A stretch of 64,000 nt of DNA from an uncultured Acidobacteriota bacterium (GCA_963822445.1 CAWGHO010000001.1:1195967-1259966); one strand, 5' to 3'; shown: positions 27,555 through 62,467, numbered from the stretch's first letter. The notes: generated by a model from the letters alone, not told the origin. Numbers and translations: made by a program.

Positions 27555-28473
27555 GCTCGATCAACATCGCTGGCTTCTCTCCGATCGCGTCCGGACGCTC
27601 GCTTTCCGGGACGCGATCCACCAGCTGGTCAAGCCCGGCGACGTCGTAGTCGACCTGGGCAGCGGCTCGGGAATCCTCGCCTTCTTCGCGGCTGAGGCTG
27701 GTGCGGCGCGGGTTTACGCGATCGAGAAGCAGCACATCGCCGACGTGGCTTCGCTGGTCGCGCGGCACAACCGTTATCACGACCGGGTCGTCCTCCTGCA
27801 CGAGTACTCCCTGAAAACGACAGTGCCCGAGCGGGCGAATGTCCTCATCACCGAGACCCTCGGCAACTTCGGTCTCGACGAGCAGATCGCCGGACTGACC
27901 ATCGACGCGCGCGAGCGCTACCTGATGCCGGACGCGATCCTCATTCCCCAGCGCGTCGTGCTGTCCGCGGTTCCGGTCGAGCTTCTGGAGATGTTCGAGC
28001 GGCACATCGAGTGGTGGGGTGAATCGCGTTACGGCGTCGATCTCAAACCGCTGCGCACCTTCGCGTCGAACACGGTTTACGCCGCCGACGTCTCCGAGCG
28101 GGCGCATCTCGCCGCGCCGGCGACGATGGTCGACATCGATCTCCGAACGATAGAGACGTCCGATGCCGCTGGAAAGGCTGTCTTCATCGCGACCCGCGAC
28201 GGCGTGCTGCACGGATTTGCAGGCTGGTTTGCCGCCACGATCGCGCCGGGCATCGTCATCTCCAATCCCGCTCCGCACGACACGCACTGGCAGCAGGCTT
28301 TCCTGCCGGTCGAACATCCCGTCGAAATCAAACGCGGCGACCAGATCGAGCTCGAGTTGCAGACGCACGACGGGCGGGCCTGGCGGTGGCGCGGGCGCGC
28401 CGCGGAGCAGGAGTTCGATCAGACCACCTGGCTCTCCGCGCCTCCGTGCACCCTTCTCGGCGCGCGGGACTAG
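27532..28473 (+). CDS. Protein arginine N-methyltransferase (PRMT)-like class I SAM-dependent methyltransferase
   Basis: PRMT signatures: motif I VVVDLGSGSGILAFFAAEAGAARVYAIE, double-E loop VLITETLGNFGLDEQ, and a THW loop at PAPHDTHWQQAF. The N-terminus HRWLLSDRVRTLAFRDAI aligns with the eukaryotic PRMT pre-motif-I helix. The start overlaps the divergent beta-helix gene start. Confidence 0.75.
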   Translation: MTLIIRFMLDQHRWLLSDRVRTLAFRDAIHQLVKPGDVVVDLGSGSGILAFFAAEAGAARVYAIEKQHIADVASLVARHNRYHDRVVLLHEYSLKTTVPERANVLITETLGNFGLDEQIAGLTIDARERYLMPDAILIPQRVVLSAVPVELLEMFERHIEWWGESRYGVDLKPLRTFASNTVYAADVSERAHLAAPATMVDIDLRTIETSDAAGKAVFIATRDGVLHGFAGWFAATIAPGIVISNPAPHDTHWQQAFLPVEHPVEIKRGDQIELELQTHDGRAWRWRGRAAEQEFDQTTWLSAPPCTLLGARD

Positions 28474-28483
28474 AATTCGCGGC

Positions 28484-29611
28484 ATGTACAGGGCCGCACT
28501 GCTTTTCGTCCTTCTCCTTCCCACGTTTGCATTCGCCCAGGGCCGCCGCGATGGCGACTGGCGTGAGTTTCCCGCGCAGAAAGGGTGCGTCGGCGGCAGC
28601 CGCTGCGCCGACAAGCGCTTCCGCATCGCGCTCGATGACAGGCCGGTCATCGCCGTGCGATTCAGAGCGCATGATCAAATCGGCGAGACGGCCGGCGGCG
28701 TGTTGCGGGTGAAGATCGACGGCGACACGATCCGCGGCTACCTCGATATCCCCCGCGCCGGCGAGCTGTTCACGATCGACGTGGACGAGCTTCGCGGACG
28801 GCAGCTCGTGTTCGAGCCGGTCGCGAATGATGAAGTCGAGATCTCCGACATCGCGGTCATGTACAGCCGCGAGAATACGATCCGCCGCATCCCCGAGGCT
28901 CGTCGGGGCGGGCGGGGCGGCGGCGGACCGGGATGGCGCTCGTATCCGAATGCCTCCGGTTGCATCGGCGGCGACGGCTGCCGCCAGAACGGCACCCGCA
29001 TCACCATCCCTCTCGAAGAAGCCCCGGTCCTCGGCATCCGCTTTCACGCCCACGACAACGTCGGCAAACGCGCCGACGGCAAGCTGAGCGTGCGCATCGA
29101 CGACACGACCATCGGCTGGTCGATCGACGTGCAGCGCAACGGCAAGCGCCATGACGTCGAGGTGGACAACGTCCGCGGCACGCGACTGGTGATCGAGACG
29201 GCGAACGACGACGAAGTCGAAGTCAGCGACGTCGAAGTGCTTTACGGCCGCCGCGGCGGAGTGGGCAGCAATGGCCCGCGCGAGATCGAGCACGAAGGCG
29301 GATGCATCGGCGGATCGGAATGCGGCGGCCGCCGCAATCGCATTCGCGTGGCCCTGCGCGATTACCCCGTCGAATCGATCCGCTTCTACGCCCGCGACGA
29401 CGTCGGCACCAGGGCCGGCGGCGAGCTCCGCATCCGCATCGACGAGGAGATCCTCCGCGATTACCTCGACATCCCCCGCGAAGGCCGCACCTTCACCATC
29501 GACGGCAAAGGCCTGGTCGGCGAGTACCTGATCATCGAGACGACCGAGGATGACGAAGTGGTGATCCGGGACATCAAGGTGAAGTTCGGGACGGGGGAGT
29601 ACGACGATTAG
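28484..29611 (+). CDS. Secreted protein built from three ~120-aa internal repeats, function unknown
   Basis: Signal peptide MYRAALLFVLLLPTFAFA. Each repeat has the form GC(V/I)GG…C…R(I/F)…D.PV..IRF.A.D.(G/V)…G.L.(V/I)(K/R)ID…I……DI.R.G..F.ID……G..LV.E…DE(V/E)(E/V).SD(I/V)…. Confidence 0.7.
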   Translation: MYRAALLFVLLLPTFAFAQGRRDGDWREFPAQKGCVGGSRCADKRFRIALDDRPVIAVRFRAHDQIGETAGGVLRVKIDGDTIRGYLDIPRAGELFTIDVDELRGRQLVFEPVANDEVEISDIAVMYSRENTIRRIPEARRGGRGGGGPGWRSYPNASGCIGGDGCRQNGTRITIPLEEAPVLGIRFHAHDNVGKRADGKLSVRIDDTTIGWSIDVQRNGKRHDVEVDNVRGTRLVIETANDDEVEVSDVEVLYGRRGGVGSNGPREIEHEGGCIGGSECGGRRNRIRVALRDYPVESIRFYARDDVGTRAGGELRIRIDEEILRDYLDIPREGRTFTIDGKGLVGEYLIIETTEDDEVVIRDIKVKFGTGEYDD

Positions 29612-29955
29612 GGGCGCGGAGTTGATTGCGCGTATCGCTACGGGCAATCCGGGTACGCGCCTGGATAAATCGCTTTTCCATTCTGGGGCGTGATCGCGTT
29701 CTGCAGGTAGGCGACTGAAGCGACAATTCCTTAGCCAGTTCAGATTGGCTTGAACACGCGCAATGATTGCAACCCCGCTCGCAAGAACCGCCTATACGTG
29801 CGACCAAAGGCGGTATGGCAGAGTGCCCATCCTGCTGCACCCGACCTTCGTAAGGCGCCGGTTTGGGCTGAGTCCCAAGGTGCACGCGTCGTACTTCAGA
29901 ACAAACCGCACTTCTATACGCAGCCTAAATTCGAGTTATGCCGACGAACCGGAGA

Positions 29956-29962
29956 GTTAGCC
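29956..29962 (+). other. Core-site-like GTTAGCC marking the left boundary of the cassette array (an attC R' or attI-type recombination point)
   Basis: GTTAGCC is identical to the R' core of attC B and is the exact reverse complement of the R'' GGCTAAC found at the cassette ORF stops. GC content drops immediately after it. Confidence 0.4.
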
Positions 29963-29982
29963 AGACGTAAGATAAGCGACGC

Positions 29983-30603
29983 ATGAAATTGATTGCGATA
30001 CTTGAATCATGGGTCATTCCCGACGGAAGTTACCCTCCATTCGCTGTCGGAATGCCGGTAAACCTGTCTTTCGAGATGGCAGTGCGACAGATCTCTATCA
30101 ACGCCGCAGCTGAGGATTCGTTCGAATCGAATGGAGAGGGCGAGTACTCGTTTGCGGGCCGGGTTCTCGCAAAGTACAACGGTGGCGATCCGCTCGCGGT
30201 GGTCGAAGCAAGCGGGTTCCGCTTCTTCCTCGAAGGCACGCGCGCGCAGGAACTTCGCCCCGGTGAACGCGTTCAGGGACTAGGTTCTTTGGTGGTCGAC
30301 TACTACATATGGGTCGAATACGTCAACGAACGTCGTGAGGCGCCGGACCTTTTCTACAACTTGGGCGTTCGCCGTATTCGGCGCGTCCAGATTCCGGATT
30401 CTCTCGTCAGCCGTCACGCCACAGGCAAGGCGCTTCCTGCCCGAGTCGCGCCATCGGAGTTCGGCGCAATCACCGAGTTGCAGACAATGGTCGGACAGGA
30501 ATTTGACGAAGAGTTCTATCTCCTCGACCTAGAAACGACCGATCTAGCAGTGCCGCGGACTTTCTCGGGTGAGCCCCGCGAGTTCCGCCTTGAACGCAGG
30601 TGA
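29983..30603 (+). CDS. Cassette ORF of unknown function (206 aa)
   Basis: Intact ORF, GC about 50-55% against about 69% background. I found no recognisable motifs. Confidence 0.55.
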   Translation: MKLIAILESWVIPDGSYPPFAVGMPVNLSFEMAVRQISINAAAEDSFESNGEGEYSFAGRVLAKYNGGDPLAVVEASGFRFFLEGTRAQELRPGERVQGLGSLVVDYYIWVEYVNERREAPDLFYNLGVRRIRRVQIPDSLVSRHATGKALPARVAPSEFGAITELQTMVGQEFDEEFYLLDLETTDLAVPRTFSGEPREFRLERR

Positions 30604-30658
30604 TCACGGATGAGCGTACTTGTGCGAAAATGCGTAATGCCAGCTGAGGTTCACACTG

Positions 30659-31036
30659 TTGGATTCCGCCGAGATTGAACGAGCTGTTTGGGTTGCGACA
30701 GGCGTCGCGGCAATCACCGCGGCTCTGCTCACAGTCGTTGTGTATTACCTTCAACAACTTACCGTCGCCACCACCGGCATGCGCGTGCTTGGCAGCGTTG
30801 CCGCTTTGCTTCTGTCGTTCGGCGTCTACATCTTTGCGGCAGTCGTATTTTCTATCGTCATAAACGCACAGTTGCGGCAGACGAGTTCCGAGGGAGCGTT
30901 GAGCGTGCCTTGGTCAACTGTCTTCATTCACCCAGGGCCCTTGCACAAACTGGCACCCCTCTTCGCAATAGCTGCAACTTGGGCAACTCTTGCTTTCGTC
31001 GCTAGGCGACACCGTTCGCGAGAAATCGCTGGCTAA
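30659..31036 (+). CDS. Cassette ORF, small membrane protein (125 aa, 2-3 TM helices)
   Basis: Hydrophobic helices AVWVATGVAAITAALLTVVVYYL and LGSVAALLLSFGVYIFAAVVFSIV. The stop TAA is embedded in the attC inverse core GGCTAAC. Confidence 0.55.
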   Translation: MDSAEIERAVWVATGVAAITAALLTVVVYYLQQLTVATTGMRVLGSVAALLLSFGVYIFAAVVFSIVINAQLRQTSSEGALSVPWSTVFIHPGPLHKLAPLFAIAATWATLAFVARRHRSREIAG

Positions 31037-31968
31037 CTGTTGCGTCTCAGGACGTTGTTCCGATCCAGGCGACTGATGGGTGGATTGTAAGAGAGCGCGG
31101 TATGCGCTCGGTGGTAGTTGTAGAAGTGAAGGTACGGTGCGAGCCAACGGCGCCGTTCCTCGGAGCTGTGGTACGAGAACCGATAGGCCCATTCGCGCAG
31201 CAGCGTCTGGATGAACCGCTCCGCTTTACCGTTCGTCCGTGGTGTGTACGGCCGGATGCGGACGTGAGTGAGGTTCAGGCGGCTGCAGGTATCCCGGAAG
31301 TCGCGTGAGATGAAGGCCGATCCGTTGTCGGTCATCACCCGCTCGACGATGACATTCCGCTGAGCGAACCACGCCACCGCCCGAGTCAAAAACGAGCTGG
31401 CAGTCTCGCTACGCTCATCTGCCAGGACGTCGACGTAGGAGAGTCGGGTGAAGTCATCCGTCGCGACGTACACGAACTCGAAGCCCTGCTTCTTTGAGCC
31501 AAACGATCGACGCCTGGTGATGCGGTGTCCCACTCGATTGAACCGTCCCAGGCGCTTGATGTCGATGTGCACCAGTTCCCCCGGACGCTCCTTCTCGTAC
31601 CGAATTGGCACTGTTGCCGGCTCAAGCTGACGCAACCGAGCCAGCCCTGCTGACCGGCAGATCCGCGCTGCTGTCGACGCACTCACGCCCACTGCCTGCG
31701 CGATCTGTCGCACAGTCCGCCATTCGCGGCGAAGACTCAGAACACGCTGTCGTTTTATGTCGCTCGTGGCCCGGCCCCTGTGCGGTCTGGAGCTCCGATC
31801 GTTAAGCGGCTCGACCCTCAGACCACGACGGATCCACTCCCGCCCTCGCCGGTCACTCATACCGGCGGCCTCCGACGCCTCGCGCACCGACCATCCTTGT
31901 TCGCAGACTCGCTTGACCAGCAGTGCTCGACTCAACGGGCAGCTTCGCGCATTCTTGTGCACGTCCAT
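31033..31968 (-). CDS. IS481-family DDE transposase (integrase-core type)
   Basis: 311-aa ORF with an N-terminal helix-turn-helix and an rve integrase core (…HIDIKRL…VYVATDDFTRLSYV…TDNGSAF…). Its TAG stop lies in the duplicated target (plus-strand cta at 31033-35), as is typical for IS481. Confidence 0.85.
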   Translation of the reverse strand: MDVHKNARSCPLSRALLVKRVCEQGWSVREASEAAGMSDRRGREWIRRGLRVEPLNDRSSRPHRGRATSDIKRQRVLSLRREWRTVRQIAQAVGVSASTAARICRSAGLARLRQLEPATVPIRYEKERPGELVHIDIKRLGRFNRVGHRITRRRSFGSKKQGFEFVYVATDDFTRLSYVDVLADERSETASSFLTRAVAWFAQRNVIVERVMTDNGSAFISRDFRDTCSRLNLTHVRIRPYTPRTNGKAERFIQTLLREWAYRFSYHSSEERRRWLAPYLHFYNYHRAHTALSYNPPISRLDRNNVLRRNS

Positions 31969-32071
31969 CTGGGTTCCTTCCTGTCAACCTGTTCGTTTGA
32001 GAGCTTTCAGATTGACGAAAGTCGCCCGGATGGACAACCCGCTTCAAGGAACAACGTCCTGACACATCACA
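31038..32071 (-). mobile_element. IS481-family insertion sequence (1034 bp) with 25-bp imperfect terminal inverted repeats and a 6-bp target-site duplication GCTAAC
   Basis: Left end TGTTGCGTCTCAGGACGTTGTTCC; reverse complement of the right end TGTGATGTGTCAGGACGTTGTTCC. Flanking direct repeats GCTAAC at 31032-37 and 32072-77. It is inserted exactly in the attC R'' core. Confidence 0.8.
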
Positions 32072-32129
32072 GCTAACTACTGCCAGGAGCTGTCGGCGGG
32101 CCGTTCGCCGCGCCCGGCGGCCGAGCCGC
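32072..32129 (+). other. attC A, left (R''-L'') portion, between the two IS insertions
   Basis: GCTAAC-TACTGCCAGGAGCTGTCGGCGGGCCG…GCGGCCGAGCCGC. Together with 31031-31037 it reconstitutes GGCTAACTACTGCCAGGAGCTG, homologous to the left ends of attC B and C. Confidence 0.6.
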
Positions 32130-33456
32130 ATTCGCATTAAGTTAAGAGCCGGCGTACCCTAAGTGTATGAATCGACGGGTGGATGAGCGGGAGTGGATTC
32201 AGTATCAATGGGACTATCTGGTGGCGCTGCTGGGTGGCAAGCGGCGCATTGAGCGGCTGGCGTATGAGACCGGTGCATTTACGCGACGGCGGAAGGTCGA
32301 TAGTCCAAGTGATCTGCTGCGTCTGATCTTCACGTGGGCGGTTGCCGAACGGTCGTTGCAAGAGACTGCGGCCTTGGCTGCCGAGTCGGAACTGGCGGAT
32401 CTGAGCGCGCCCGCTCTGCTGGGCCGATTCTCACAGGCCGAGGCGTGGCTCGGGGCAGTTCTGGGTGATCTGCTCGCTGCGCGGAGCGCGGTCACCTACC
32501 GGGTACCGACGTCCGGTTAATCGATGCCACCTCAATCAGTTGCCGTGGCAGCAACAACACCGAGCGCCGGGTCCATCTCGCGCTGGATCTACGTACGAAC
32601 CGCACCACAGCGGTCGACCTCTCTGACCGGCACGGAGGCGAGACGCTGGAGCGCTTTGTCTTTCGTCCAGGGGAGATCGTGATTGCCGATCGCGGATATG
32701 CGAAGCGTAAGGACGTTGCGCACGTGTCGCGAAGCGGTGCATGGTTTGTGATCCGGATCGGCTGGACCAACCTGCCGCTCGAGCATCTGGACGGGGAACC
32801 TTTCGACCTGATTGGAACGCTTGGCGGCCTCCCTGAGGCGGCGGCTGCAGAGTTTTCCGTTCAGATTCGTACGGCGAAGGATGCGTTGGTGCCGTGCCCT
32901 GGTGGCTGTACGGAAGAGCGAACCAGCCGCCGAGCGCGCACGGCAGCAGATCCTCGCCGACGCCCGACGGCACGGCAATCCGCAGGTCGACCTGCGCACA
33001 CTCGAAGCCGCGGGGTGCATATTCGTCATCACCAATTTGCCCAACGAGATCTCGCCGAGAGCGTGCTGGAGCTCTATCGCCTACGGTGGCAGATCGAGAT
33101 CAAGTTCAAGACCCTCAAGTCCGTACTTCACCTCGGAAACCCGCCGACCCGAAGCGGCGAGCTGCTGAACGTTTATCTCATGGCGAAGCTGATCGTTGCG
33201 CTGCTGATCGAGGAGTTCATCTATCAGGCCGAGTCTATTTCCCCCTGGGGATACCCGCTCGAGGCCAATACAACCGTGGCGGCTGACGCGACTCCTGCTT
33301 GAAGCTGTGATCGCCGCAATCCGGCCAGTGCTGTCGCTGCGACTCCGCTGGAGTCGGCCCCTTCGCTGTTCCCGTCATCTTGCCCAAGCGAATAGAAGTC
33401 GACCAAACCAGCGCACGTCGGCACGCTACGTTACTGGAGACATAAGTTAATGCGAA
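32130..33456 (+). mobile_element. IS4-family insertion sequence (1327 bp) with 17-bp imperfect terminal inverted repeats and a 13-bp target-site duplication
   Basis: Left inverted repeat ATTCGCATTAAGTTAAG; reverse complement of the right end ATTCGCATTAACTTATG. Direct repeats GCGGCCGAGCCGC at 32117-32129 and 33457-33469. Confidence 0.75.
32167..33302 (+). pseudogene. IS4-family DDE transposase, one frameshift near 32470-32517
   Basis: N-terminal piece 32167..32520. Continuation LIDATSISCRG…IVIADRGYAKR…YRLRWQIEIKFKTLKSVLHL (DDE_Tnp_1 signature) runs in another frame from about 32517 to 33302. Confidence 0.7.
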
Positions 33457-33579
33457 TGCGGCCGAGCCGCCTACCACGTCCCGCGATGCACGGCGTCACG
33501 CCGCTTGCAACCGCGTCAACGTCAAATGCGGCAAGCGGCGTGCCGCGACTGCTCGCTCGCACGTGGGGCCTCGCCGCAG
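33457..33579 (+). other. attC A, right (L'-R') portion, ending in the core GTTCGTC
   Basis: …ACGGCGTCACGCCGCTTGCAACCGC…CCGCAGCTCAGGCGATAGAC-GTTCGTC is homologous along its length to attC B (…ACGGCGTCACGGCGGTTGCAGG…GCGCAGCTCAGGCGATAGAC-GTTAGCC). Confidence 0.6.
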
Positions 33580-34011
33580 CTCAGGCGATAGACGTTCGTC
33601 GAGAAGCACCCTTTCCATGAACGCTTCGTATCTCGCACGTTGAACGCGTGCGTGGCGCGGCGCCGCGCCCAGGCGACGCGGACGCACGACTTCCAACCGC
33701 GCACAATTCGCTCGATGAAATAGACGGAGGTTTGCGAATCGGTTCGGGCAACATGGCAAAGCGCCAAGCGCCCCATCGGTGGCATCTTCAATCTAGCGCA
33801 TCTCACGCGATCACCCTACTGTCCGCATGCCATTCAAACCGCGCAATAGACGGCGACCTCTATCGTTGCGGTGGTCGCTAAGCCAGTGCGTCTATTGGTT
33901 ATTCGGTCGACGAACACAAAAAGCTTAAGGTGGCTTTATGGGAGCCCGACCGCGCCTGACTCACGCCGCAGGCCGAGTGTCGGACGATCACATGCTATTC
34001 TTGATCTGCCG

Positions 34012-34545
34012 ATGCAGAGCTCGAGAGGCATAGTTGTACGTGCAGCGACTTGGGTGGTCGCGGCCTTCCTTGCTTCGGGGTTCCAATTTTCAACCTCCGC
34101 GCAGGAATCGCAGCGTCTCACGGCAAGCGATGCATTCGCCATGTACTCATCGATGCTTGCCGAGATTTCACACGCGTCGCTCGACGACTTTAAAACTGTC
34201 ATCGGCTTGCTTGAACGAGACGGCTTCCGAAAGGCGTCCGACAACTCCTGGCGTTTCCGAAACGAAAGCGGCAGCGTCGTCGTCGCCGCGTACCCAGAGC
34301 AGGGATCGTACTTTGTCTCGCTTGCGCCCAAGAATACAGGTCCGTTCGGCGATGCTGCTCTGGCCGCCCTGATAGCCAAGGCGGAGGCAGTCATGCTCGA
34401 CAGCGGCGGACAATCCATCGAGATATTGCTTCGCCGATCGAACCAGCAACGTCTTGGGAAGACCGTCGAGGTCAGCGAGTACATCTACGTCGCCCTGAAT
34501 GGTGCCATCTGGTGGCGAACGTCACGCGCAATCGTATGGCGCTAA
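34012..34545 (+). CDS. Cassette ORF: secreted or periplasmic protein of unknown function (~177 aa)
   Basis: Start chosen at MQSSRGIVVRAATWVVAAFLASGFQFSTSAQ (signal-peptide-like); the tool's ORF begins at a GTG at 33871. Stop TAA at 34543-45, just before the attC. Confidence 0.5.
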   Translation: MQSSRGIVVRAATWVVAAFLASGFQFSTSAQESQRLTASDAFAMYSSMLAEISHASLDDFKTVIGLLERDGFRKASDNSWRFRNESGSVVVAAYPEQGSYFVSLAPKNTGPFGDAALAALIAKAEAVMLDSGGQSIEILLRRSNQQRLGKTVEVSEYIYVALNGAIWWRTSRAIVWR

Positions 34546-34550
34546 ACGCG

Positions 34551-34748
34551 GCATAACTACTGCCAGGAGCTGTCGCGGCCCGGCTTCGGTCCGCCGGCCG
34601 AGCCGGCTGCTTTTTCGCCAGAGGGACGGCGTCACGGCGGTTGCAGGTCGCCACTCGCTGCATCGCAGTTCATTGGCGGCAACCGCCGCGCCGCTCCGGC
34701 TTCGGCGCGCGGGCCCTGGCCGCGCAGCTCAGGCGATAGACGTTAGCC
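34551..34748 (+). other. attC B (~200 bp): R'' GCATAAC … R' GTTAGCC
   Basis: The reverse complement of the left end, CAGCTCCTGGCAGTAGTTATGC, pairs with the right end CAGCTCAGGCGATAGACGTTAGCC with extrahelical bulges, an attC-like imperfect palindrome. Confidence 0.6.
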
Positions 34749-34847
34749 TGACACCGAGAGAGAGCGCCAGAACTCATACTTTCGAGCGCCGCATCCCGAT
34801 GACGTACTCGTGACGTAAGTCTCGGCACTCGTGTAAGATCGTTCGCA

Positions 34848-35072
34848 ATGCCACAAGCCTTCGACACCTCGCCGCGCGCAGCAGCCGTACACGCCCAGCT
34901 CTATCGTGACATCGGCCCAGCGAAGCGAGCTGAAATCATGGCGGAGCTCAGCGACGCGCTACGAGATCTCGCTGCGGCCGGCGTCCGGCGACGACATCCT
35001 GAGTACGATGACGAGCGTGTTCGAAAAGAAGTCCTCGCGGTCTTCTATGGCCGCGGTCGAACGTCGCTGTGA
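34848..35072 (+). CDS. Small cassette protein (74 aa), putative antitoxin partner of the downstream nucleotidyltransferase
   Basis: 4-bp ATGA overlap with the next ORF. The size and position match MenA-type antitoxins placed upstream of MenT-type toxins. Confidence 0.45.
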   Translation: MPQAFDTSPRAAAVHAQLYRDIGPAKRAEIMAELSDALRDLAAAGVRRRHPEYDDERVRKEVLAVFYGRGRTSL

Positions 35073-35626
35073 GCCTCCGAGACGCTTTTCGAAACATGCG
35101 AGATGCTCTTGAGGAGCTTGGAATACCGTACATGGTGACGGGTTCCGTCGCGAGCTCCGTGCACGGTGTTCCGCGAGCTACTCAAGACATCGATGTGATC
35201 ATCGAGCCGACACGTGACCAGCTAGTTGCGCTCTTAAACAGGTTTTCCGAACCAATCTACGACGCCGATCGCGACGACGCTTTGGATGCTCTCAATCGAC
35301 GATCAATGTTCAGCGTGATCGATCGCAGAGGCATATGGAAGATCGACTTCATCGTTCGCAAGCAGCGTCCGTTCAGTAAGAAAGAATTTGACCGACGGGT
35401 GAGAATCGATATTCTCGATGTTTTAGTGTATTCGGCGACACCGGAAGATGTACTCCTTGCAAAGCTCGAGTGGGCGAAATTGGGTGAATCCGAACGCCAG
35501 ATCCGTGATGCTGCAGGCATCATCGAAATTCAGGGCGAGAAGCTTGACCGTGAGTATGTGGAGCGGTGGGCCGCAGCCCTGGATATTGAGGATCAATTGC
35601 ACGCAGCACGAGCAAAGGCAGGCTAA
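35069..35626 (+). CDS. Pol-beta superfamily nucleotidyltransferase (185 aa), MenT/AbiEii-like putative toxin
   Basis: GSVASSVHGVPRATQDIDVII fits the hG[GS]x9-13DhD NTase motif, followed by KIDFIV (third acidic residue). The stop TAA lies inside the attC core GGCTAAC. Confidence 0.55.
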   Translation: MSLRDAFRNMRDALEELGIPYMVTGSVASSVHGVPRATQDIDVIIEPTRDQLVALLNRFSEPIYDADRDDALDALNRRSMFSVIDRRGIWKIDFIVRKQRPFSKKEFDRRVRIDILDVLVYSATPEDVLLAKLEWAKLGESERQIRDAAGIIEIQGEKLDREYVERWAAALDIEDQLHAARAKAG

Positions 35627-35794
35627 CTACTGCCCGAGGCTGTCGGAGAGCCGTCTGCCGCGCCCGGCGCTGAAGCGCCTCGTGAAGCGTTGCTTGCCCG
35701 CGGAAGGCCGGCCATCCCTACGCGCCACGGCGCCGAGGAGCGCGCCACGCAAACCCTACCCACGCGGAACCTCGCCGCATCTCACGCGTTAGAC
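35621..35794 (+). other. attC C (~170 bp): R'' GGCTAAC … R' GTTAGAC; last attC of the array
   Basis: GGCTAACTACTGCCCGAGGCTGTCGG … CGCCGCATCTCACGCGTTAGAC. More diverged than A and B, but the same architecture. Confidence 0.5.
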
Positions 35795-35853
35795 GCTGGA
35801 TTGCCCTCGATTCCGATAGCATCGAGCCCCGTAGCCGTCAGGGAGGGAGAAAG

Positions 35854-37020
35854 ATGACGTACCGCGTTCTTATATTCACCTTGCTCGCGCTCTGCGTGAG
35901 CGCAACCGCCGCGTCGCAGCCGGTCGTCGTCGGGCAAAGCCACCGCCTTCGTTCATCGGTCCTGAACGAAGACCGCACTTACCGCGTTCATCTTCCGGCG
36001 AGCTATGGATGGGCGAAGGATCGGCGATATCCGGTTCTGTACGTGCTCGATGGCGCGACGCATTTTCTGCACACGTCCGGGTCCGCCGGCTATCTCGCGG
36101 CGCAGGGCGAGATCCCGGAAATGATCGTGGTTGCGCTCGACAGCACCGTCCGGATCAGAGACTTCACCCAGTCGGACTGGTCGAGCGCATGGGTTGGAGG
36201 AGGGGGCGCGGCGAACTTCAAGCGCTTCCTTTCCACCGAGCTCATTCCGAACATCGAGCGCGCTTATCGCACCAACGGGTTCCGCGTGCTGGCCGGCCAC
36301 TCCGCCGGTGGACAGTTCGTCCTGTACTGCCTCACCTCCGAGCCGTCTCTCTTTCAGGCCTACATGGCGTTCAGCCCGAGTCTCGACTGGGACGACAACC
36401 TGCCCCAGAAATCGCTGGCCAAATCGTTCGACTCGACGCGCTCGCTGAAGGCGTTTCTGTACGTCGCGCGATCGGATGATTCCGGCCGCGCATTGGAGGA
36501 TTACGACCGGCTGGTGGAAACCCTGAAAACGAAATCGCCGCAGGGATTCCGCTGGCACAGCCAGCCCTATCCTGACGAAACCCACGGCAGCATTCCTTTG
36601 CTCGCACAGATCGATGCCCTTCGCCGACTGTACTCCGGTTACCGGTTTCACGGAGACCTGGTGTCGAAGGGCCTCGACTTCGCGGAGAAGCATTTCGAAG
36701 AGGTCTCCAGGACCGTGGGATGGCCTCTGCCCGTTCCCGAAAGCGTGATCAACGATTTCGGTTACGACGCGCTGGCGGCGGGGAAAACGGAAGCTGCCAT
36801 TACTCTCTTCACGCGCAACGTTCTGGCGAATCCGAATTCCGCCAACGCCTACGACAGTCTGGCGGACGCGTATGAAAAGGCGGAGAACTGGAAAGAAGCG
36901 GCAAAAGCAGCAGAGAAAGCCGCCGCTCTGGCTATAGAGTTCGACCTTGCCAACCGGGAGTACTTCATTCAGCACGCCGCAAAAATGAAGGCCCGGCTCG
37001 AACAGGAATCGAAACCATGA
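35854..37020 (+). CDS. Secreted 'putative esterase' family alpha/beta-hydrolase (enterochelin-esterase / esterase-D-like) with a C-terminal TPR region
   Basis: Signal peptide. YPVLYVLDGATHF, and GHSAGGQFVLYCL (a GxSxG nucleophile elbow). Confidence 0.75.
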   Translation: MTYRVLIFTLLALCVSATAASQPVVVGQSHRLRSSVLNEDRTYRVHLPASYGWAKDRRYPVLYVLDGATHFLHTSGSAGYLAAQGEIPEMIVVALDSTVRIRDFTQSDWSSAWVGGGGAANFKRFLSTELIPNIERAYRTNGFRVLAGHSAGGQFVLYCLTSEPSLFQAYMAFSPSLDWDDNLPQKSLAKSFDSTRSLKAFLYVARSDDSGRALEDYDRLVETLKTKSPQGFRWHSQPYPDETHGSIPLLAQIDALRRLYSGYRFHGDLVSKGLDFAEKHFEEVSRTVGWPLPVPESVINDFGYDALAAGKTEAAITLFTRNVLANPNSANAYDSLADAYEKAENWKEAAKAAEKAAALAIEFDLANREYFIQHAAKMKARLEQESKP

Positions 37021-37391
37021 TCAACGGCTTTCACGGCGTTCGCTATCAGGTGAAGGATGTCGCCCGATCGATCGACTTCTACACCGAACATCTCGGCTTC
37101 AAACTGGAGCACAAGCAGCTTCCCGCGTTTGCCGCTCTTTCCCTCGGCGCGCTCCCGCTCCTGCTGAGCGGGCCCGGCGCTTCGGGCTCGCGTCTCGTCA
37201 ATGGCGAGCCTCAGGAGCCGGGCGGCTGGAATCGCATCGTTCTTCGCGTTGCCGATCTTTCGTCATTCATCGAGGCCCTAAGCAAGGCCGGTCTCCGGTT
37301 TCGAGGCGAAATGCAGGTTGGCCCGGGAGGAAAGCAGATTCAATTGCTCGACCCCGACGGCAATCCGATCGAGCTATTCGAGCCGGCCTAG
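37017..37391 (+). CDS. VOC/glyoxalase-bleomycin-resistance family protein
   Basis: 124 aa with a betaalphabetabetabeta module (FHGVRYQVKDVARSIDFYTEHLGF…). ATGA overlap with the esterase gene. Confidence 0.75.
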   Translation: MINGFHGVRYQVKDVARSIDFYTEHLGFKLEHKQLPAFAALSLGALPLLLSGPGASGSRLVNGEPQEPGGWNRIVLRVADLSSFIEALSKAGLRFRGEMQVGPGGKQIQLLDPDGNPIELFEPA

Positions 37392-39665
37392 GATCTCCTG
37401 ATACCTGGCCTCCCCTCGCAGCGGCTCGAACGGCGGCGAGACGCGCATGGCCGACAGCCAGTAATCGCGATTCGCATACGCCTCGTCGAGCAGCGCCGTG
37501 GCGCGGGCGCGATCGCCGAGGAGGTACCAGGTGCCCGCTCGCAAAGCGGGGGTATGGGTGATGCCGGGCGAGGTCGGGCCGAGATCCTCGAGTGTGGCGA
37601 TGGCCGCGACGCGGTCGCCGGTGCGCGCGTACGCGTAGGCGAGAAACGACTTCGAGACCGGGAAGTTCCGCGATGCCGAGTAGCGAAGACCCTCGATGGC
37701 TTTCGCGTAATCGCCCGAAGCCAGCGCGACGTAGCCGCGGATGTGCCGCGGATACAGCGCGTTCGGATCGAGCTCGATGGTCTCGTCGATCTGCTTCGTC
37801 GCTTCCTCGCGACGCCCGGCGTGCACGAGCGCGAAGGCGACGTTCGACTGGATCTGCGTCGAGAACGGATCGAGCCGCGCCGCTTCCTGCATCTGTCCGA
37901 CGCCCTCCTGCGCGCGGCCGACGTTCACGAGGTAGACGCCATACCAGTGATGGGCGACGGCGTAGTTCGGATTGAGCTCGAGCGCGCGGCGGAACGATCG
38001 CTCGGCGGACGGCAGGTCGAGGAGGCAACAGAGATTCAGGTATCCGAGGGATGTGTGGGCTTCGGCGAGGCTCTCGTCGAGCTTCAGCGCCTGCCGCGCC
38101 GCGGAGACCGCGCGATCGCACGCCTGCCGCCACGGTGCCGTGCCGAGTTGCATCTGCCCGATGTACGCATCAGCAACGCCGCTGTAGGCGCGGCCATAAG
38201 TCGGGTCGGCTTCCAGGGCCTGTTGAAAGAAGCCGTGCGCCTTCGCCAGCGACTCGGCATCGCGCTTGTTCCAGAAATAGCGGCCCTTGAGATAGAGGTC
38301 CGTCGCCGCGCGGCTCTCCGTCGGTGCAGGAGGCGGCGATGTACGTCCACCGCCTCGCAACGCGCTGGTGACATCGCCGGAGATCTGGCGCTCGATGGCG
38401 AGCACGTCGTGCTCGTACTGCCTTCCCCAGAGCCGCGTGCCGTCGGCGGCGTCCACGAGCTCCGCGTCGACGAGCAGCCGCTTCCCCGAGCGCCGCACCT
38501 GCCCGGCCACGATCGCGTCGACGCCGAGCTCCTTCGCCACCGCCGGAAGCGCTTTGTCCGTGTTCTTGTAGCGAAAGGCCGTCGTTCTCGCGATGACGCG
38601 AAGATCGGGCACGCGCGAGAGATCGTTGAGTAACGCGTCGGTCACGCCGTCGCTGAGATATTCGAGATTCGCGTCGCCGGTGACGTTCCCGAACGGAATC
38701 ACCACCAGCGATTTCACGATTCGCGTCGGTGCCCTGTCCCGAAACAGCAGCGCGACCGCGGTCGCAATCACTGCGGCGGCGATCGCCAACGCCAGAACGC
38801 GCGAGCGCTTGCGTTTCGGTTCCGCGGCCGGCTTCCCCGCCAGCACTTCGCGCAGATCGATCGCGAGATCGCGCGCGGAGTGATAACGATCGTCCGGCTT
38901 CTTCGCGAGGCAGCGGCGGACGATGCGGTCGAGAGCCTCAGGATCGAGTGGCCGAGGCTGTCCGCTGACGATGTTCGAGAGGACGTCGAAGGACGACTCC
39001 CCTTCGAACGCCCGCCGCCGCGCGATGGCTTCGTAGAGGATGCAGCCCGCCGCGAAGATGTCGCTGCGCGCGTCGGCGGTTTTGCCGCGAATCTGTTCGG
39101 GCGAGATGTAGCCGGCTGTGCCGACGACGACGCGCGACTCGGGATCGAGCGGCGTCGTCGCATCGGTCGATCCTGCAATTTGCGGGACCTGCAGCTTCGC
39201 CAGACCGAAGTCGAGGATCTTCGCGTAACCGTCCGCGGTGACCATCACGTTGTCCGGCTTCAGATCGCGATGCACGATCCCCGCGGCGTGCGCCTTGGCC
39301 AGCCCCTCGACGACCTGCACGCAATAGCCGAGCAATTCGTCGCGCGATACTTCGGGATCGTTGATCAGGTCGCGCAGGCTGCGCCCTTCGATCAGTTCCG
39401 AGACCATGTAACTCCGCCCGTCGGCCTCGCCGAAGCCGTGCACGGTGAGGATGTTCGGATGATTCAGCGCCGACGCCGCCTCGGCCTCCCGCCGGAACCG
39501 CGCCACGGCGTCCGCGTCGTTCGCCAGATATGTCGCGAGCACTTTCACGGCGACGTCGCGGCGCAGCTTCAGGTCGCGGGCGCGATAGACCTCGCCCATT
39601 CCTCCCGCGCCGAGGAACGAGACCACTTCGTAGTCGCCGAGGCGCGTGCCGGGCTCGATGCGCAT
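37374..39665 (-). CDS. Ser/Thr protein kinase with a TM helix and an extracytoplasmic TPR-repeat domain
   Basis: Hanks kinase motifs GAGGMGEVYRA, VAVKVL, HRDLKPDNVMV, DFGLAKL. TM helix VLALAIAAAVIATAVALLF. C-terminal TPR repeats. Confidence 0.85.
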   Translation of the reverse strand: MRIEPGTRLGDYEVVSFLGAGGMGEVYRARDLKLRRDVAVKVLATYLANDADAVARFRREAEAASALNHPNILTVHGFGEADGRSYMVSELIEGRSLRDLINDPEVSRDELLGYCVQVVEGLAKAHAAGIVHRDLKPDNVMVTADGYAKILDFGLAKLQVPQIAGSTDATTPLDPESRVVVGTAGYISPEQIRGKTADARSDIFAAGCILYEAIARRRAFEGESSFDVLSNIVSGQPRPLDPEALDRIVRRCLAKKPDDRYHSARDLAIDLREVLAGKPAAEPKRKRSRVLALAIAAAVIATAVALLFRDRAPTRIVKSLVVIPFGNVTGDANLEYLSDGVTDALLNDLSRVPDLRVIARTTAFRYKNTDKALPAVAKELGVDAIVAGQVRRSGKRLLVDAELVDAADGTRLWGRQYEHDVLAIERQISGDVTSALRGGGRTSPPPAPTESRAATDLYLKGRYFWNKRDAESLAKAHGFFQQALEADPTYGRAYSGVADAYIGQMQLGTAPWRQACDRAVSAARQALKLDESLAEAHTSLGYLNLCCLLDLPSAERSFRRALELNPNYAVAHHWYGVYLVNVGRAQEGVGQMQEAARLDPFSTQIQSNVAFALVHAGRREEATKQIDETIELDPNALYPRHIRGYVALASGDYAKAIEGLRYSASRNFPVSKSFLAYAYARTGDRVAAIATLEDLGPTSPGITHTPALRAGTWYLLGDRARATALLDEAYANRDYWLSAMRVSPPFEPLRGEARYQEILGRLE

Positions 39666-50311: not shown

Positions 50312-51064
50312 TCACGGTTTGACGCAGACCCGTCCCGTGTAATCGATCCGGTGCAGCAACGGCCGCGGGCGCAGCCGGTCCAGATACTCGTCCGTCGCTT
50401 TCCGCGCCCCACGCCAGTAACCGTAATCGTCGACGATCAGCACGCCGCCGCGAACGAGGTGCGGGTAGAGATGCTCGAGCTCGTGCCGCGTCGAGGCGTA
50501 CCAGTCCGTGTCGAGGCGAAGCAGCGCGAGCGCGTCGGGCGCGGATTCCGGCAACGTCGTCATGACGTCCCCTTCCACGAAGCGGAAGCGCTCGAAGGGA
50601 TAGCCGGTCCGGCGGAGATTCGCCGCCACCGCGGCCCGCGACGCAATGCCCCAGAACGGATCGTCAGCACTGCGCGGGTGCTGCTCCAGAATTTCGGCAG
50701 CGGTGCGTCCGCTCATCTCCTGCACGTCCTCGGCGGTCGGCGCGGTCATGCCGCCGAAGGTGTCGTAGAGCCAGAGATTGCGCGTCGTATCGCCGTGGCG
50801 CAGCAGCGTCAGCGCCATCAGCATCAGCGATCCGCCGCGCCACACACCGCATTCGGCGAAATCGCCCGCGAGCCCGTTCTCCGCGACATAGCGCGTCGCC
50901 GACCAGAGCGCGTACATCCGCTCCAGCGAGGTCATGGTGTGCTCGCGGCAGAGCTCGTAAAGCTCGAGGAACTCCGGCTCGAGATCGAACTGGTGGCTCA
51001 CGCGCCGATGATCGTCCGCGGGCCCATTTGTGCGACCTCGGAGCGCGGACTGATGAGGAGCCAT
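50312..51064 (-). CDS. TylF/MycF-family (macrocin-type) SAM-dependent O-methyltransferase
   Basis: DLEPEFLELYELCREHTMTSLERMYALWSATRYV…GDFAECGVWRGGS…LYDTFGGM…DTDWY are characteristic TylF-family blocks. Confidence 0.75.
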   Translation of the reverse strand: MAPHQSALRGRTNGPADDHRRVSHQFDLEPEFLELYELCREHTMTSLERMYALWSATRYVAENGLAGDFAECGVWRGGSLMLMALTLLRHGDTTRNLWLYDTFGGMTAPTAEDVQEMSGRTAAEILEQHPRSADDPFWGIASRAAVAANLRRTGYPFERFRFVEGDVMTTLPESAPDALALLRLDTDWYASTRHELEHLYPHLVRGGVLIVDDYGYWRGARKATDEYLDRLRPRPLLHRIDYTGRVCVKP

Positions 51065-52752
51065 GGACTGGCGACTTCCGACCGGACGATCTCCGGCAGG
51101 ATCGGCGTGAGCATCAACATATTGATCCGTGGATCTCTGGTAAACGGCTGCCGCAGAATCGCGAGCAACTCCGCATGATCGGGATGCGACGGCGAGGTCA
51201 CGTCGGCTTTCGCGAAAACGCTCTCGTCGAACGAGCCGTAATTCGTCAGACGCTGCAGCCAGATGCTGTCGACGCCGAGACGGTCGCCGAGGGCGATGAA
51301 GTCGGGAAGCTCGCGGAAGTTGTCGGCCTGGACGACGAAGTTGATCTGCAGACGGCGGATCTCCCCGGACGCGCGCATCCGCGCGATCAGCTCCAGGTTT
51401 TCCATGAGCACGTTCCACTTGCCGGGGCGGCGCAGCCGCTCGTAGGTCTCGGCCCGGGCGGCGTCGATGGAGATCGAAAGATTGCCGATCATCTCCGGCA
51501 GCTCGGGGAACTCGGCCCATCGCTTCGCGGTGAGCAGCTGCGCGTTCGTGATCAGGAAGACATACAGCCCCGGAAAGTCGTTCCGGTTCAGCGAGGCCAG
51601 GATCTTCCGGTAGTGCGTGCTCGAGAACGCCTCACCGCCGCCGGAGATGTAGGTCATGCCGGTCATTTTGCGCAGGAGCGGGAGCAGCACGCGGTCCGCG
51701 GACTCGAGGTAGACCCGCTGCTCGTCGGGTCCGGCCGTGACGATGCCGGTCCGGCACGACGGGCAGGCCAGGTTGCAGGTCTGGTCGTGATTCATCTCCA
51801 CCATGCCCGGCGACTCTTCGACGACGAGAGTGCGCTCGGCGATGTAGCGGAGCAGAAGGGGATCGGTGACCTCCGTTTTTTTCGGCAGGGAGCGGCCGGC
51901 GATGTACGAGCAGAGCGTGCGGCTGCAGTACTTGAAATCGCCGTCGTGGATGGAGCGCCGGATCTCCACGGCCGCCTCCGAATTCCAGATCGCCTCGGCA
52001 GACGGCGCCTCGACCACGTTGCCGACCGGATAGGGCACCCATGCCGAGCAGGAGCAGGCGAAGGCGTCGCCCCTGAAGCTCGTCGAAAGATGCGTGAACG
52101 GCATCGGGCAGAACCTGTCGCTGAGGTCGTAGGCCGTTTCCGGAACGGCGCGCGCGAGTAACTGCTGCGCGGTCTGACAAACCGCCTGCATCCGCAGTGC
52201 GCGCCGGATGAGCGGCGTTGCTTCGTCCGTTCTGCCGCGATCGAGGAGCAGTTCGGCATGCACCAGCAGCGCTGCACGATCGTCAGGGGCGTGCTCGGCG
52301 ACGGCCGCCGCGACCATCGCGGCATCGCCACCGAACGGCGGTTCCGGCGCAACGTACTCGGCAAGCGCACGAAGGGCAGCCATGCGAACGGAAATGTCGA
52401 CGTAGGACTGCATCCCCGCGGGGCGGAAGCTCGCCTTGGCGATGTGCGAGATCGCGATGAGCGAGTCTAAAAACGCCTTGCGCGCAGTGCCGTCGCCGCT
52501 CGTGACGGAGGACGCCAGCGCGCGGAGCCGCACGGCTTCGAAGGCCAGGAGGCGCATTGCCTGGACCGGCGCGCCGCTGCGTGACTCGAAGTGCATGAAC
52601 GCGCCGCGGATCGTTTTCAGCGCAGCGCGTCCTCTGCGCCAGGCCATCGTGGACGCGACTTCGTACCTGACCCGTCCGGCGATCTCCCTCATCAGGAGCC
52701 GGGTGGGGGCGGGGATGAGCCGGGTCGCGACACGCCGGACGGAGGTGGTCAT
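50998..52752 (-). CDS. Radical SAM enzyme with an N-terminal helical/TPR-like region and a Cys-rich pre-domain (paralogue 2)
   Basis: CNLACPSCR radical SAM triad, preceded by FCPMPF…CSCSAWVP…YCSRTLC. Overlaps the downstream methyltransferase start by 67 bp. Confidence 0.7.
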   Translation of the reverse strand: MTTSVRRVATRLIPAPTRLLMREIAGRVRYEVASTMAWRRGRAALKTIRGAFMHFESRSGAPVQAMRLLAFEAVRLRALASSVTSGDGTARKAFLDSLIAISHIAKASFRPAGMQSYVDISVRMAALRALAEYVAPEPPFGGDAAMVAAAVAEHAPDDRAALLVHAELLLDRGRTDEATPLIRRALRMQAVCQTAQQLLARAVPETAYDLSDRFCPMPFTHLSTSFRGDAFACSCSAWVPYPVGNVVEAPSAEAIWNSEAAVEIRRSIHDGDFKYCSRTLCSYIAGRSLPKKTEVTDPLLLRYIAERTLVVEESPGMVEMNHDQTCNLACPSCRTGIVTAGPDEQRVYLESADRVLLPLLRKMTGMTYISGGGEAFSSTHYRKILASLNRNDFPGLYVFLITNAQLLTAKRWAEFPELPEMIGNLSISIDAARAETYERLRRPGKWNVLMENLELIARMRASGEIRRLQINFVVQADNFRELPDFIALGDRLGVDSIWLQRLTNYGSFDESVFAKADVTSPSHPDHAELLAILRQPFTRDPRINMLMLTPILPEIVRSEVASPWLLISPRSEVAQMGPRTIIGA

Positions 52753-61486: not shown

Positions 61487-62467
61487 ATGCAGGTGATGGC
61501 ACTCCTTAACGAAGGACAAAACGCGACGTCCCTGCCGCCGCTGCCGAAGCGGTTCCGGCACCACGTGCTCTTTTCGTACGCCTCGGCGGACGCGGAGTAC
61601 GTACGGGCCGTTCGCGCCGCCTTGCCCAAGGAAGTCGACGCGTTCGACTACGCGGAAGGGGGCATGTGGGGCGAACAGCTCGTGAAAGGGCTCGAGCACC
61701 GCTACAAGAATGAAGCGCCGTTCTGCGTCGTCTTCATTTCGAAGGCCTATCTCGCCAGTCCGTGGACGCAGAAAGAGCTCGGCATCGTCCAGCGCGTCGC
61801 CAAACGCAAGCCCGGATACATGTTGCCGGTCGTGCTCGACGGCACGATCGTCCCCGAGATCGAAGGGATCGTCTGGCTCGACAAGACCCTGACTCCCGAG
61901 CAGCTCGCGGCGCGTCTCGTCGCGAAAATTCGCGAGCCGCCGCCGAAGCCCTGGTGGTTTTACGTTTCCACCGAAGTCAAAGTCGCGATTGCGGCGGTGC
62001 TGCTCGCGCTGATCCTCTTCGCGCGTCCGGCGGTCAACTACTTCCGCCCCTCGCGCACGACGATCCGGTCGGTGAGCGCGAACGCGCAGGAAATCACCGC
62101 GCGCCTCGTGAACAGCGGCCCGAAGAGTTCCACCGTGGTCGGCCAGCGATTGAAGTTCGGTGCTCTGCCGATCGAGGACGCGGTGCTGCATCTCGACAAG
62201 AAGGCGTCCGCGACGATCGCCCCCGGCGGGCACGACCTGAAGCTGAAAGCGCTGACGCTCCTGACCAAGTGCGACGCCAACGGCATCCTCCCGAACAACG
62301 ACATGGTTGCGGCCCTCCTCGGTCAGCAACCCGTCACGCTTGAAGTCGATGTCCGGGAGTCCGACGACCCTCCCGGCCAGACGACGCGGAGGATCGCGAC
62401 GATCCCTGCCGCGCGTCTCGAACCGTTCGTCAGAAGGTTGGCACCGAATGATCTCGATGATTGCTAA
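61487..62467 (+). CDS. TIR-domain protein with a central TM helix and a C-terminal (extracytoplasmic?) domain
   Basis: HHVLFSYASADAEYVRAVRAAL…APFCVVFISKAYLASPWTQKELGIV fits the bacterial TIR fold. TM VKVAIAAVLLALILFA. Confidence 0.7.
   Translation: MQVMALLNEGQNATSLPPLPKRFRHHVLFSYASADAEYVRAVRAALPKEVDAFDYAEGGMWGEQLVKGLEHRYKNEAPFCVVFISKAYLASPWTQKELGIVQRVAKRKPGYMLPVVLDGTIVPEIEGIVWLDKTLTPEQLAARLVAKIREPPPKPWWFYVSTEVKVAIAAVLLALILFARPAVNYFRPSRTTIRSVSANAQEITARLVNSGPKSSTVVGQRLKFGALPIEDAVLHLDKKASATIAPGGHDLKLKALTLLTKCDANGILPNNDMVAALLGQQPVTLEVDVRESDDPPGQTTRRIATIPAARLEPFVRRLAPNDLDDC

Follow-up and report, generated by a model that had tools for sequence, protein, structure and literature searches.

Two insertion sequences in one attC site

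A 64-kb stretch of DNA from an uncultured Acidobacteriota bacterium (GCA_963822445.1, CAWGHO010000001.1:1195967-1259966), here called the window, carries a small chromosomal array of gene cassettes with three attC-type sites, each of which follows plus-strand open reading frames (ORFs). The first of these sites, attC A (31031-33600), is interrupted by two insertion sequences (ISs), designated IS-A and IS-B, that lie 52 bp apart (Table 1). Comparison loci fetched for the analysis are numbered L001 to L197 (197 loci).

Table 1. Cassettes, attC sites, and insertion sequences of the window (a slash marks the proposed crossover point)
Feature	Position	Strand	Description
Upstream boundary region	29916-29962	+	AGCCTAAATTCGAG/TTATGC (putative attI-like simple site), then CGACGAAC-CGGAGA-G/TTAGCC, the start of cassette 1
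Cassette 1, first ORF	29983-30603	+	206 aa; no Pfam or NCBIfam match
Cassette 1, second ORF	30659-31036	+	125 aa, membrane-like; its TAA stop falls within the inner core of attC A
attC A, inner core (R'')	31031-31037	+	GGCTAAC; 31032-31037 is the left copy of the IS-A duplication
IS-A transposase gene	31033-31968	-	311 aa; TAG stop (31033-31035) lies outside the element and comes from the target site
IS-A	31038-32071	-	Insertion sequence, 1034 bp; 24-bp terminal inverted repeats; 6-bp duplication
IS-A duplication, right copy	32072-32077	+	
attC A, 5' arm to the IS-B target	32078-32129	+	
IS-B	32130-33457 (alternative 32129-33458)	+	Insertion sequence, decayed, 1328 bp
attC A, 3' part	33471-33600	+	Ends in outer core (R') G/TTCGTC at 33594-33600
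Cassette 2 ORF	33871-34545	+	Up to 224 aa, start uncertain; no family match
attC B	34551-34748	+	Intact, 198 nt; inner core GCATAAC, outer core GTTAGCC
Cassette 3	34848-35626	+	Small ORF (34848-35072) overlapping a DUF6036 nucleotidyltransferase-like ORF (35069-35626)
attC C	35621-35801	+	Intact, more diverged, 181 nt; inner core GGCTAAC, outer core degenerate, GCTGGAT

An earlier note on this DNA had proposed two insertion sequences within a single attC-type site of a cassette array, and this was confirmed by reading the junctions directly in the sequence. The note had also described the insertions as nested, a reading rejected on the coordinates, which place two separate elements side by side with neither lying within the other. 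For the restoration of attC A, each element was deleted along with one copy of its duplication. The restored site, of 189 nt, aligned end to end with attC B (71% over 199 nt, E = 1e-18), bearing out the predicted colinearity of the two, and it also aligned lengthwise with attC C. Two of the earlier limits were corrected: attC A does not end at 33579 but continues to its outer core at about 33600, and the second deletion is 32130-33470, as a deletion ending at 33469 leaves an extra C relative to the family consensus, GAGCCGCCTAC. In nhmmer searches, 32073-32140 matched positions 3-70 of the attC model and 33458-33598 matched positions 47-197, and the family profile, run over the whole window, found three copies only (attC A, attC B, and attC C). 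The bottom strand of restored attC A was predicted to fold with an energy of -63.5 kcal/mol (z = -3.8), which none of 200 shuffles matched.

Structure and condition of IS-A and IS-B

The IS-A transposase scored 263 bits against the IS481 family model NCBIfam NF033577 (cut-off, 224) and matched the Pfam domains PF13011 (LZ_Tnp_IS481), PF00665 (rve), and PF13683 (rve_3), in agreement with the family assignment made earlier. Its terminal inverted repeats, TGTTGCGTCTCAGGACGTTGTTCC and TGTGATGTGTCAGGACGTTGTTCC, are identical at 20 of 24 positions, and identical copies of GCTAAC flank the element (31032-31037 and 32072-32077). Terminal inverted repeats and a 6-bp duplication are what is expected of an IS481 element. 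The duplication is, as had been recognized, the attC inverse core itself; it has the form GTTAGN, a variant of the typical NCTAGN. The TAA stop of the upstream cassette ORF (31034-31036) lies within GGCTAAC and is preserved by the left duplication copy. Two converging genes share a stop region here (31033-31036, inside the attC core), the TAG stop of the opposite-strand transposase being read at 31035-31033, in the target duplication.

Over its 1034 bp, IS-A is 99.9% identical (one base differs) to two copies on L163, a 20.4-kb metagenome contig (European Nucleotide Archive [ENA] ERZ25039504:contig_113229). The exact IS-A transposase is encoded twice on L163 and also on a 2.53-Mb contig, and the nearest named relatives are found in Thermoanaerobaculia genomes assembled from metagenomes. 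Because only one difference separates IS-A from the L163 copies and its ORF is intact, the insertion is taken to be recent, and the element is probably active.

IS-B has the ends ATTCGCATTAA(G/C)TTA and is flanked by identical copies of GCGGCCGAGCCGC at 32117-32129 and 33458-33470. Its limits can be read in two ways because the target is a palindrome: the alternative limits, 32129-33458, give CA...TG ends and an 11-bp duplication, CGGCCGAGCCG, and are equally readable and fit the relatives of IS-B. The 13-bp duplication reported previously stands insofar as identical copies flank the element, with the 11-bp reading equally possible. Assignment to the IS4 family was upheld by a match of the window copy to Pfam DDE_Tnp_1 (PF01609), by the score of an intact relative, P0001, against NF033592 (124 bits; cut-off, 115), and by a Y-2-R-3-E-6-K motif readable in the translation LYRLRWQIEIKFKTLK. 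IS-B is 92% identical to its nearest intact relative. Compared with two intact relatives (379 aa), it carries frameshifting deletions after 32494 (1 nt), 32897 (2 nt), and 33053 (1 nt), so the intact transposase expected of an autonomous IS4 element is lacking. Unless these frameshifts arose in the assembly, IS-B is either an older insertion or a dead one. The suggestion that both insertions are fairly recent holds for IS-A but not for IS-B. A promoter and terminator scan for outward promoters at the IS ends gave counts at shuffle expectation.

The interrupted repeat belongs to a family of long attC-type sites

To characterize the repeat family, 29 members from the window and seven contigs were aligned. 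The members begin with RYYYAAC and end with GTTRRRY, as attC sites do, with GCCTAAC or GCCCAAC paired with GTTAGGC or GTTGGGC; the window cores deviate slightly from these (inner, GGCTAAC and GCATAAC; outer, GTTCGTC, GTTAGCC, and GCTGGAT). The long, imperfect hairpin comprises 37 pairs, which are 94.2% paired across the alignment, compared with 30-45% when the partners are slid by 1-3 columns, in keeping with the dyad symmetry of attC sites, whose structure is better conserved than their sequence. Compensatory changes were seen in 22 of the hairpin pairs, and none of 500 shuffles reached the observed values.

The cores also record the succession of cassettes. L163 carries 16 copies of the attC family with one or two ORFs between them, and when junctions were counted from nhmmer-defined sites, every one (15 of 15) joined an outer core to a following site whose inner core was its reverse complement; the two cores of one and the same site matched in only 9 of 16. 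The fourth base of the outer core is polymorphic (A or G), and at all 15 junctions it matches the inner core of the next cassette. Such a match is the footprint to be expected of a crossover between G and TT and is not expected from a generic intergenic repeat. The rule holds at two of the three junctions of the window: GTTAGCC at the start of cassette 1 (29956) is the reverse complement of the attC A inner core, and the attC B outer core complements the attC C inner core, but there is no complementarity between GTTCGTC, the outer core of attC A, and GCATAAC, the inner core of attC B. Taken together, these features make it very likely that the repeats are integron attC sites, of a family that is unusually long and is also present in soil-metagenome cassette arrays.

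An Rfam scan of 28000-39000 gave two sub-threshold chance matches only, and a scan of viral contigs with the attC 5' motif gave three chance matches, none of them of the attC family. attC B contains a small terminator-like hairpin (34593-34617), GCCGGCCGAGCCGGC followed by TGCTTTTTCG, whose T-run is absent from other family members.

IS-A and its close relatives are often found in the attC inner core

Next, the insertion sites of IS-A relatives were compared, 160 of which were retrieved from collections of genomes and metagenomes. The L163 copies occupy two further attC sites; their orientation and exact insertion point match those of IS-A in the window, and the duplication is GTTAGG. Their context, ...CTGGCAGTA GTTAGG-IS-GTTAGG..., is the bottom-strand reading of the inner core GCCTAAC. 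In the IS-A clade, defined as relatives of at least 65% identity, all 15 right junctions in the first scans read ACA followed by GTTAGN, and copies fetched later read the same. Relatives of 57% identity or less almost all showed ACA followed by NCTAGN, the target typical of IS481. In near and distant relatives alike, every transposase gene with a readable end terminates in the target's TAG. At 71% identity or above, the IS-A clade comprises more than 120 protein clusters.

A look-up of a 78%-identical transposase returned ten contigs with the context ...CTACCTCGA GTTAGG-IS-GTTAGG..., on which the attC profile begins at model position 3, directly beside the element. At least four different cassette-side flanks were present for this relative, corresponding to at least four further insertions into attC inner cores. 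Over the whole clade, 10 of 16 assessable sites were in an attC core, always the ORF-proximal one and always in one orientation (the window, L163 twice, L083, L003, L089, L188, L189, L193, and L197). Five had no detectable attC (L004, L086, L088, L091, and L195), and one was rearranged (L087).

GTTAG is rare in this GC-rich DNA, with 12 distinct sites in 64 kb. The outer core contains GTTAG as well yet was never used; there GTTAG is preceded by C, and at the inner core, read on the bottom strand, by A. A short motif, (A)GTTAG(S), therefore suffices to account for the use of the inner core.

Flanks that do not match were seen at L087 (319-1352; GCTAAC-IS-GTTAGG), and the pairs L189/L191 and L174/L175 share one flank only. 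Mismatched flanks suggest that IS copies lodged in different attC sites have recombined or undergone inversion with each other, or that assembly through the repeat produced chimeras.

IS-B and its close relatives occupy a palindrome within attC sites

Independent contigs yielded transposases that share 72-91% identity with the repaired IS-B protein. In L165, L166, and L184 (same orientation as IS-B) and in L174 (opposite orientation), the element lies in the same 11-bp palindrome, CGGCCGAGCCG, with the same duplication, and attC sequence of the same family stands on both sides of the element in every case. Five independent attC sites thus carry an IS-B-like element (at least 72% identity) at this palindrome. 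The 11-mer occurs in 16 of the 29 family members; its sole occurrences in the window are those in attC A and attC B. The side hairpin into which it folds is small and covaries among family members (GGCGGC-CGA-GCCGCC, GGCGC-TGAA-GCGCC, and GGGGC-TGAA-GCCCC).

More distant relatives of IS-B (66-70% identity) occupy other GC-rich stem-loops that are repeated nearby, with the duplications GGCTTCAGCC and GCGCCGAGCGCG. These comparisons indicate that palindromic hairpins are the target of the IS-B lineage as a whole, the IS-B sub-lineage using the hairpin that lies within this attC family. The GC-rich palindromes repeated in L167-L173 and L178-L183, CCCCCGGC-TTCA-GCCGGGGG and CCCCGCGC-CGA-GCGCGGGG, look like host repetitive extragenic palindromic (REP) elements; in L178 the flanks are inverted, not direct.

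Cassettes, array boundary, and neighboring genes

The upstream edge of the array holds two core-like motifs. GTTATGC, which occurs once in the window (29935), gives the attC B inner core when reverse-complemented and precedes the start of cassette 1 by 21 bp. GTTAGCC occurs twice on the plus strand, at 29956 and at 34742. Between the two motifs stands CGACGAAC (29942), whose reverse complement, GTTCGTCG, is found where attC A ends on its 3' side (33594-33601). The simplest reading of this arrangement would be that cassette 2 starts at G/TTATGC (29935/29936) and that cassette 1 entered it 21 bp further in, at what may have been a palindromic secondary site, GACGAAC-CGGAGA-G/TTCGTC. The motif AGCCTAAATTCGAG/TTATGC resembles an attI simple site, with no intI beside it.

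Clusters of attC sites that lack an integron integrase are termed CALIN in the definition of IntegronFinder. Because no integrase was found in the window, the three sites are best described from their sequence as an integrase-less cluster of the CALIN type, with attC sites of a long family, rather than as a complete integron, which would have intI and attI beside the array; of these, the window offers only the putative attI-like motif at 29916-29941. What the window shares with a CALIN is a set of three attC sites and their cassettes, with no integrase in the roughly 30 kb to each side. The window differs from one in the possible attI-like simple site at its upstream edge and in the cassette apparently inserted inside the leader of the next.

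The exact 206-aa protein of cassette 1 was found on a 3256-bp short-read contig (run ERR11592907) whose projected end lies about 22 bp into IS-A. The cassette 3 ORF at 35069-35626 matched PF19502 (E = 2e-5). Cassettes of L163 encode TIR-domain proteins, a CAP12/PCTIR-type TIR protein, dCTP deaminase-like, hemerythrin, and PhyH proteins, and proteins of no assigned function, and several look like phage-defense genes. A TIR_2-domain protein is also encoded in the window, far from the array (61487-62467).

Just upstream of the array, the gene at 28163-29611 encodes three internal repeats of about 110 aa and has no family match; a short-read gene call suggests a start near 28484 (375 aa). Following attC C, 35854-37391 encodes an esterase with TPR repeats and a protein of the glyoxalase/bleomycin-resistance fold, with no attC following. 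The G+C content of this segment (58-61%) is nearer that of the cassettes than that of the flanks (about 65%), and it may be the end of the island. Elsewhere, two adjacent radical-SAM proteins, one with a SPASM domain, are encoded beside methyltransferase, ABC/Wzt, and glycosyltransferase genes (50998-54551), possibly a peptide-maturation or polysaccharide locus.

Discussion

The earlier note had implicitly treated the double insertion in attC A as coincidence and missed the main point, the site specificity of both insertions. Because both elements recur at the same sub-sites of other attC sites, the double hit instead points to target specificity. We consider it likely that the two insertions were targeted and independent, the preference of each element matching a conserved sub-site of this attC family.

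For IS-A, the following sequence of steps is proposed. In the IS-A clade the 6-bp target has shifted from the NCTAGN usual in the family to GTTAGN, usually after A, and GTTAGN is the integron core as met on the bottom strand of the ORF-proximal (R'') attC end. The staggered cut duplicates the core, such that the upstream ORF keeps its stop and the transposase gains TAG from the target. The right copy of GCTAAC, joined to the terminal A of the IS, rebuilds a near-perfect core, AGCTAAC, beside the rest of the attC site. In the L163 copies the rebuilt core is ACCTAAC, a canonical RYYYAAC, and in all IS-A-bearing sites the attC profile matches from position 2 or 3 onward. An insertion of IS-A alone would presumably turn ORF and IS into one larger cassette with a usable recombination site, and such a cassette could still be mobilized.

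The IS-B lineage enters GC-rich palindromic hairpins, its sub-lineage using CGGCCGAGCCG, which is kept in about half of the attC family. By placing 1.3 kb between the arms of attC A, IS-B would probably impair folding and cripple the site. The proposal that both insertions disable attC A thus probably fails for IS-A, which regenerates the core, and is probably correct for IS-B, which separates the arms.

That two unrelated ISs landed by chance in the same insertion-tolerant, noncoding stretch of 190 bp is very improbable. Intergenic DNA does tolerate insertions, and the window has only one doubly hit site, but the IS-A position recurs on independent contigs (L163 twice, L083, L188, L189, L193, and L197), as does that of IS-B (L165, L166, L184, and L174), with duplications that are identical or nearly identical each time. 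We give even less credence to an assembly artefact in which repeated IS copies were placed into attC. Both elements are multicopy, short-read contigs break there, and some metagenome flanks look chimeric. Against this, the duplications are perfect at the junctions of both elements, removal of the elements restores a family-consensus attC to the base, and the same junction types occur in assemblies of different projects (ENA and the Joint Genome Institute).

The nature of the target leaves more room for alternatives. It is improbable, though somewhat less so than chance, that the repeats are another kind of structured intergenic (REP-like) repeat and the elements repeat-targeting ISs. No integrase was found in the window or in the loci searched (L001-L164 and L185-L187), a length of 177-200 nt is atypical of attC, and distant IS-B relatives target REP-like hairpins. 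The repeats nevertheless end in RYYYAAC and GTTRRRY, and from one repeat to the next there are one or two ORFs, on the same strand and functionally unrelated. The polymorphic base 3' of G/TT follows the next cassette at 15 of 15 junctions, a pattern not expected of a REP-like element.

A more serious alternative, if still an unlikely one, is that the transposases, or a host or integrase cofactor, recognize folded or single-stranded attC rather than a short linear sequence. Structure-directed insertion would account for the consistent use of the ORF-proximal core by IS-A, never the outer core, although GTTAG is present in both, and it would fit the location of IS-B and its distant relatives in stem-loops and the strong support for the attC hairpin. 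It does not account for the five IS-A clade insertions at GTTAGN that have no detectable hairpin partner. Sequence alone would account for the choice, since GTTAG follows A at the inner core and C at the outer core, and IS-B is found in both orientations, as expected of a symmetric sequence target. A symmetric target consensus is a trait of the IS4 family (IS10 and IS231). Targeting by sequence recognition is the reading we favor.

Several observations weigh against targeted insertion into integron attC sites as set out here. Five of the 16 IS-A clade insertions lack attC, so the preference, though strong, does not hold throughout, and its object may be no more than a motif of about 7-8 bp that attC cores happen to supply. 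The loci were fetched via transposases from short metagenome contigs, which makes counts of independent events approximate, and some flanks are shared or possibly chimeric (L189/L191 and L174/L175). Exact look-ups of the cassette ORFs and of the upstream gene yielded no uninterrupted attC A; they gave only the one short-read contig, from the same sample, described above. attC sites are commonly quoted as about 57-141 nt long, and all 29 members of this family lie outside that range. Bulges are predicted between the R and L boxes, with an ambiguous assignment of extrahelical bases. A Pfam scan of 40 window ORFs gave no match to Phage_integrase or another tyrosine recombinase, and recombination of these sites by an integrase is therefore presumptive. 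The frameshifts of IS-B, finally, could be sequencing errors if the assembly is from long reads only.

The search for an integrase was extended by tblastn with an IntI1 query, which provides a lead and not a formal test; nothing was found in the window, L001-L164, or L185-L187, the search having covered 167 of the 197 loci. No integrase is present on the L163 contig.

Both elements retain the hallmarks of their families. IS-A shares with classical IS481 elements (Bordetella IS481 and relatives) the transposase family, terminal repeats beginning TGT, the 6-bp duplication, and the stop codon TAG supplied by the target, and the IS-A clade differs from them in the target itself, GTTAGN (the integron core) versus NCTAGN. 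IS4, IS10, and IS231 have a DDE_Tnp_1 transposase with YREK, CA...TG ends, a 9- to 13-bp duplication, and a symmetric target. IS-B shares these traits, differing in that its specific palindrome is embedded in an attC family.

In full-text literature searches, whose coverage was incomplete, attC targeting was described only for IS1111-group elements and for group IIC-attC introns, and no link of IS481- or IS4-family elements to attC sites was found. The IS1111-attC elements are not known to make a target duplication. IS-A and IS-B differ from that group in having DDE transposases (rve and DDE_Tnp_1), terminal inverted repeats, and duplications of 6 bp and 11-13 bp. They work like the IS1111-attC elements but are not members of the group, being ordinary IS481 and IS4 family members with unusual targets. 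The group includes ISPa21, ISPst6, ISKpn4, and ISUnCu1 (work of Tetu & Holmes 2008 and of Post & Hall 2009, cited in PMC11187229 and PMC11089894), which are reported to insert at a specific position and in a specific orientation near one end of cassette attC sites. A DEDD transposase, a seeker RNA guide, and subterminal repeats are described for them in PMC11187229. Sister lineages of the IS1111-attC elements target REP hairpins (ISPa11), which parallels the relatives of IS-B.

Group IIC-attC introns insert site-specifically into attC and can stay in a cassette array (PMC3001079). As retroelements, these introns contain a ribozyme and encode a reverse transcriptase; IS-A and IS-B resemble them in homing to attC. 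Group II intron RNA gave no Rfam match in 28000-39000 at E values up to 1, and no reverse-transcriptase domain was present among the ORFs scanned in that interval, in which the decayed IS-B was scanned as two fragments only.

By homing to attC, such elements influence the growth, freezing, and expression of cassette arrays. The insertions described here would add cut-and-duplicate DDE transposons of two further families to the groups known to do so. For the IS481 clade, a one-base shift of target, from CTAG to TTAG, would be enough to make the integron core itself a landing site. With the upstream gene and the recombination site left intact, attC would be a safe harbor, and the cassette may serve as a vehicle for the element. 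The long attC family (about 190 nt) of uncultured soil bacteria, with its very clear crossover footprints, offers a target set for integron-finding tools and for integrase assays. A bolder proposal, which we advance only tentatively, is that an IS481 lineage and an IS4 lineage have each specialized on a different conserved sub-site of one attC family in soil Acidobacteriota-like arrays and that the IS481 element, whose target duplication rebuilds the core, is a true cassette passenger, which integrase can excise and move. If this were true, it would represent an undescribed route by which DDE elements spread through the cassette pool.

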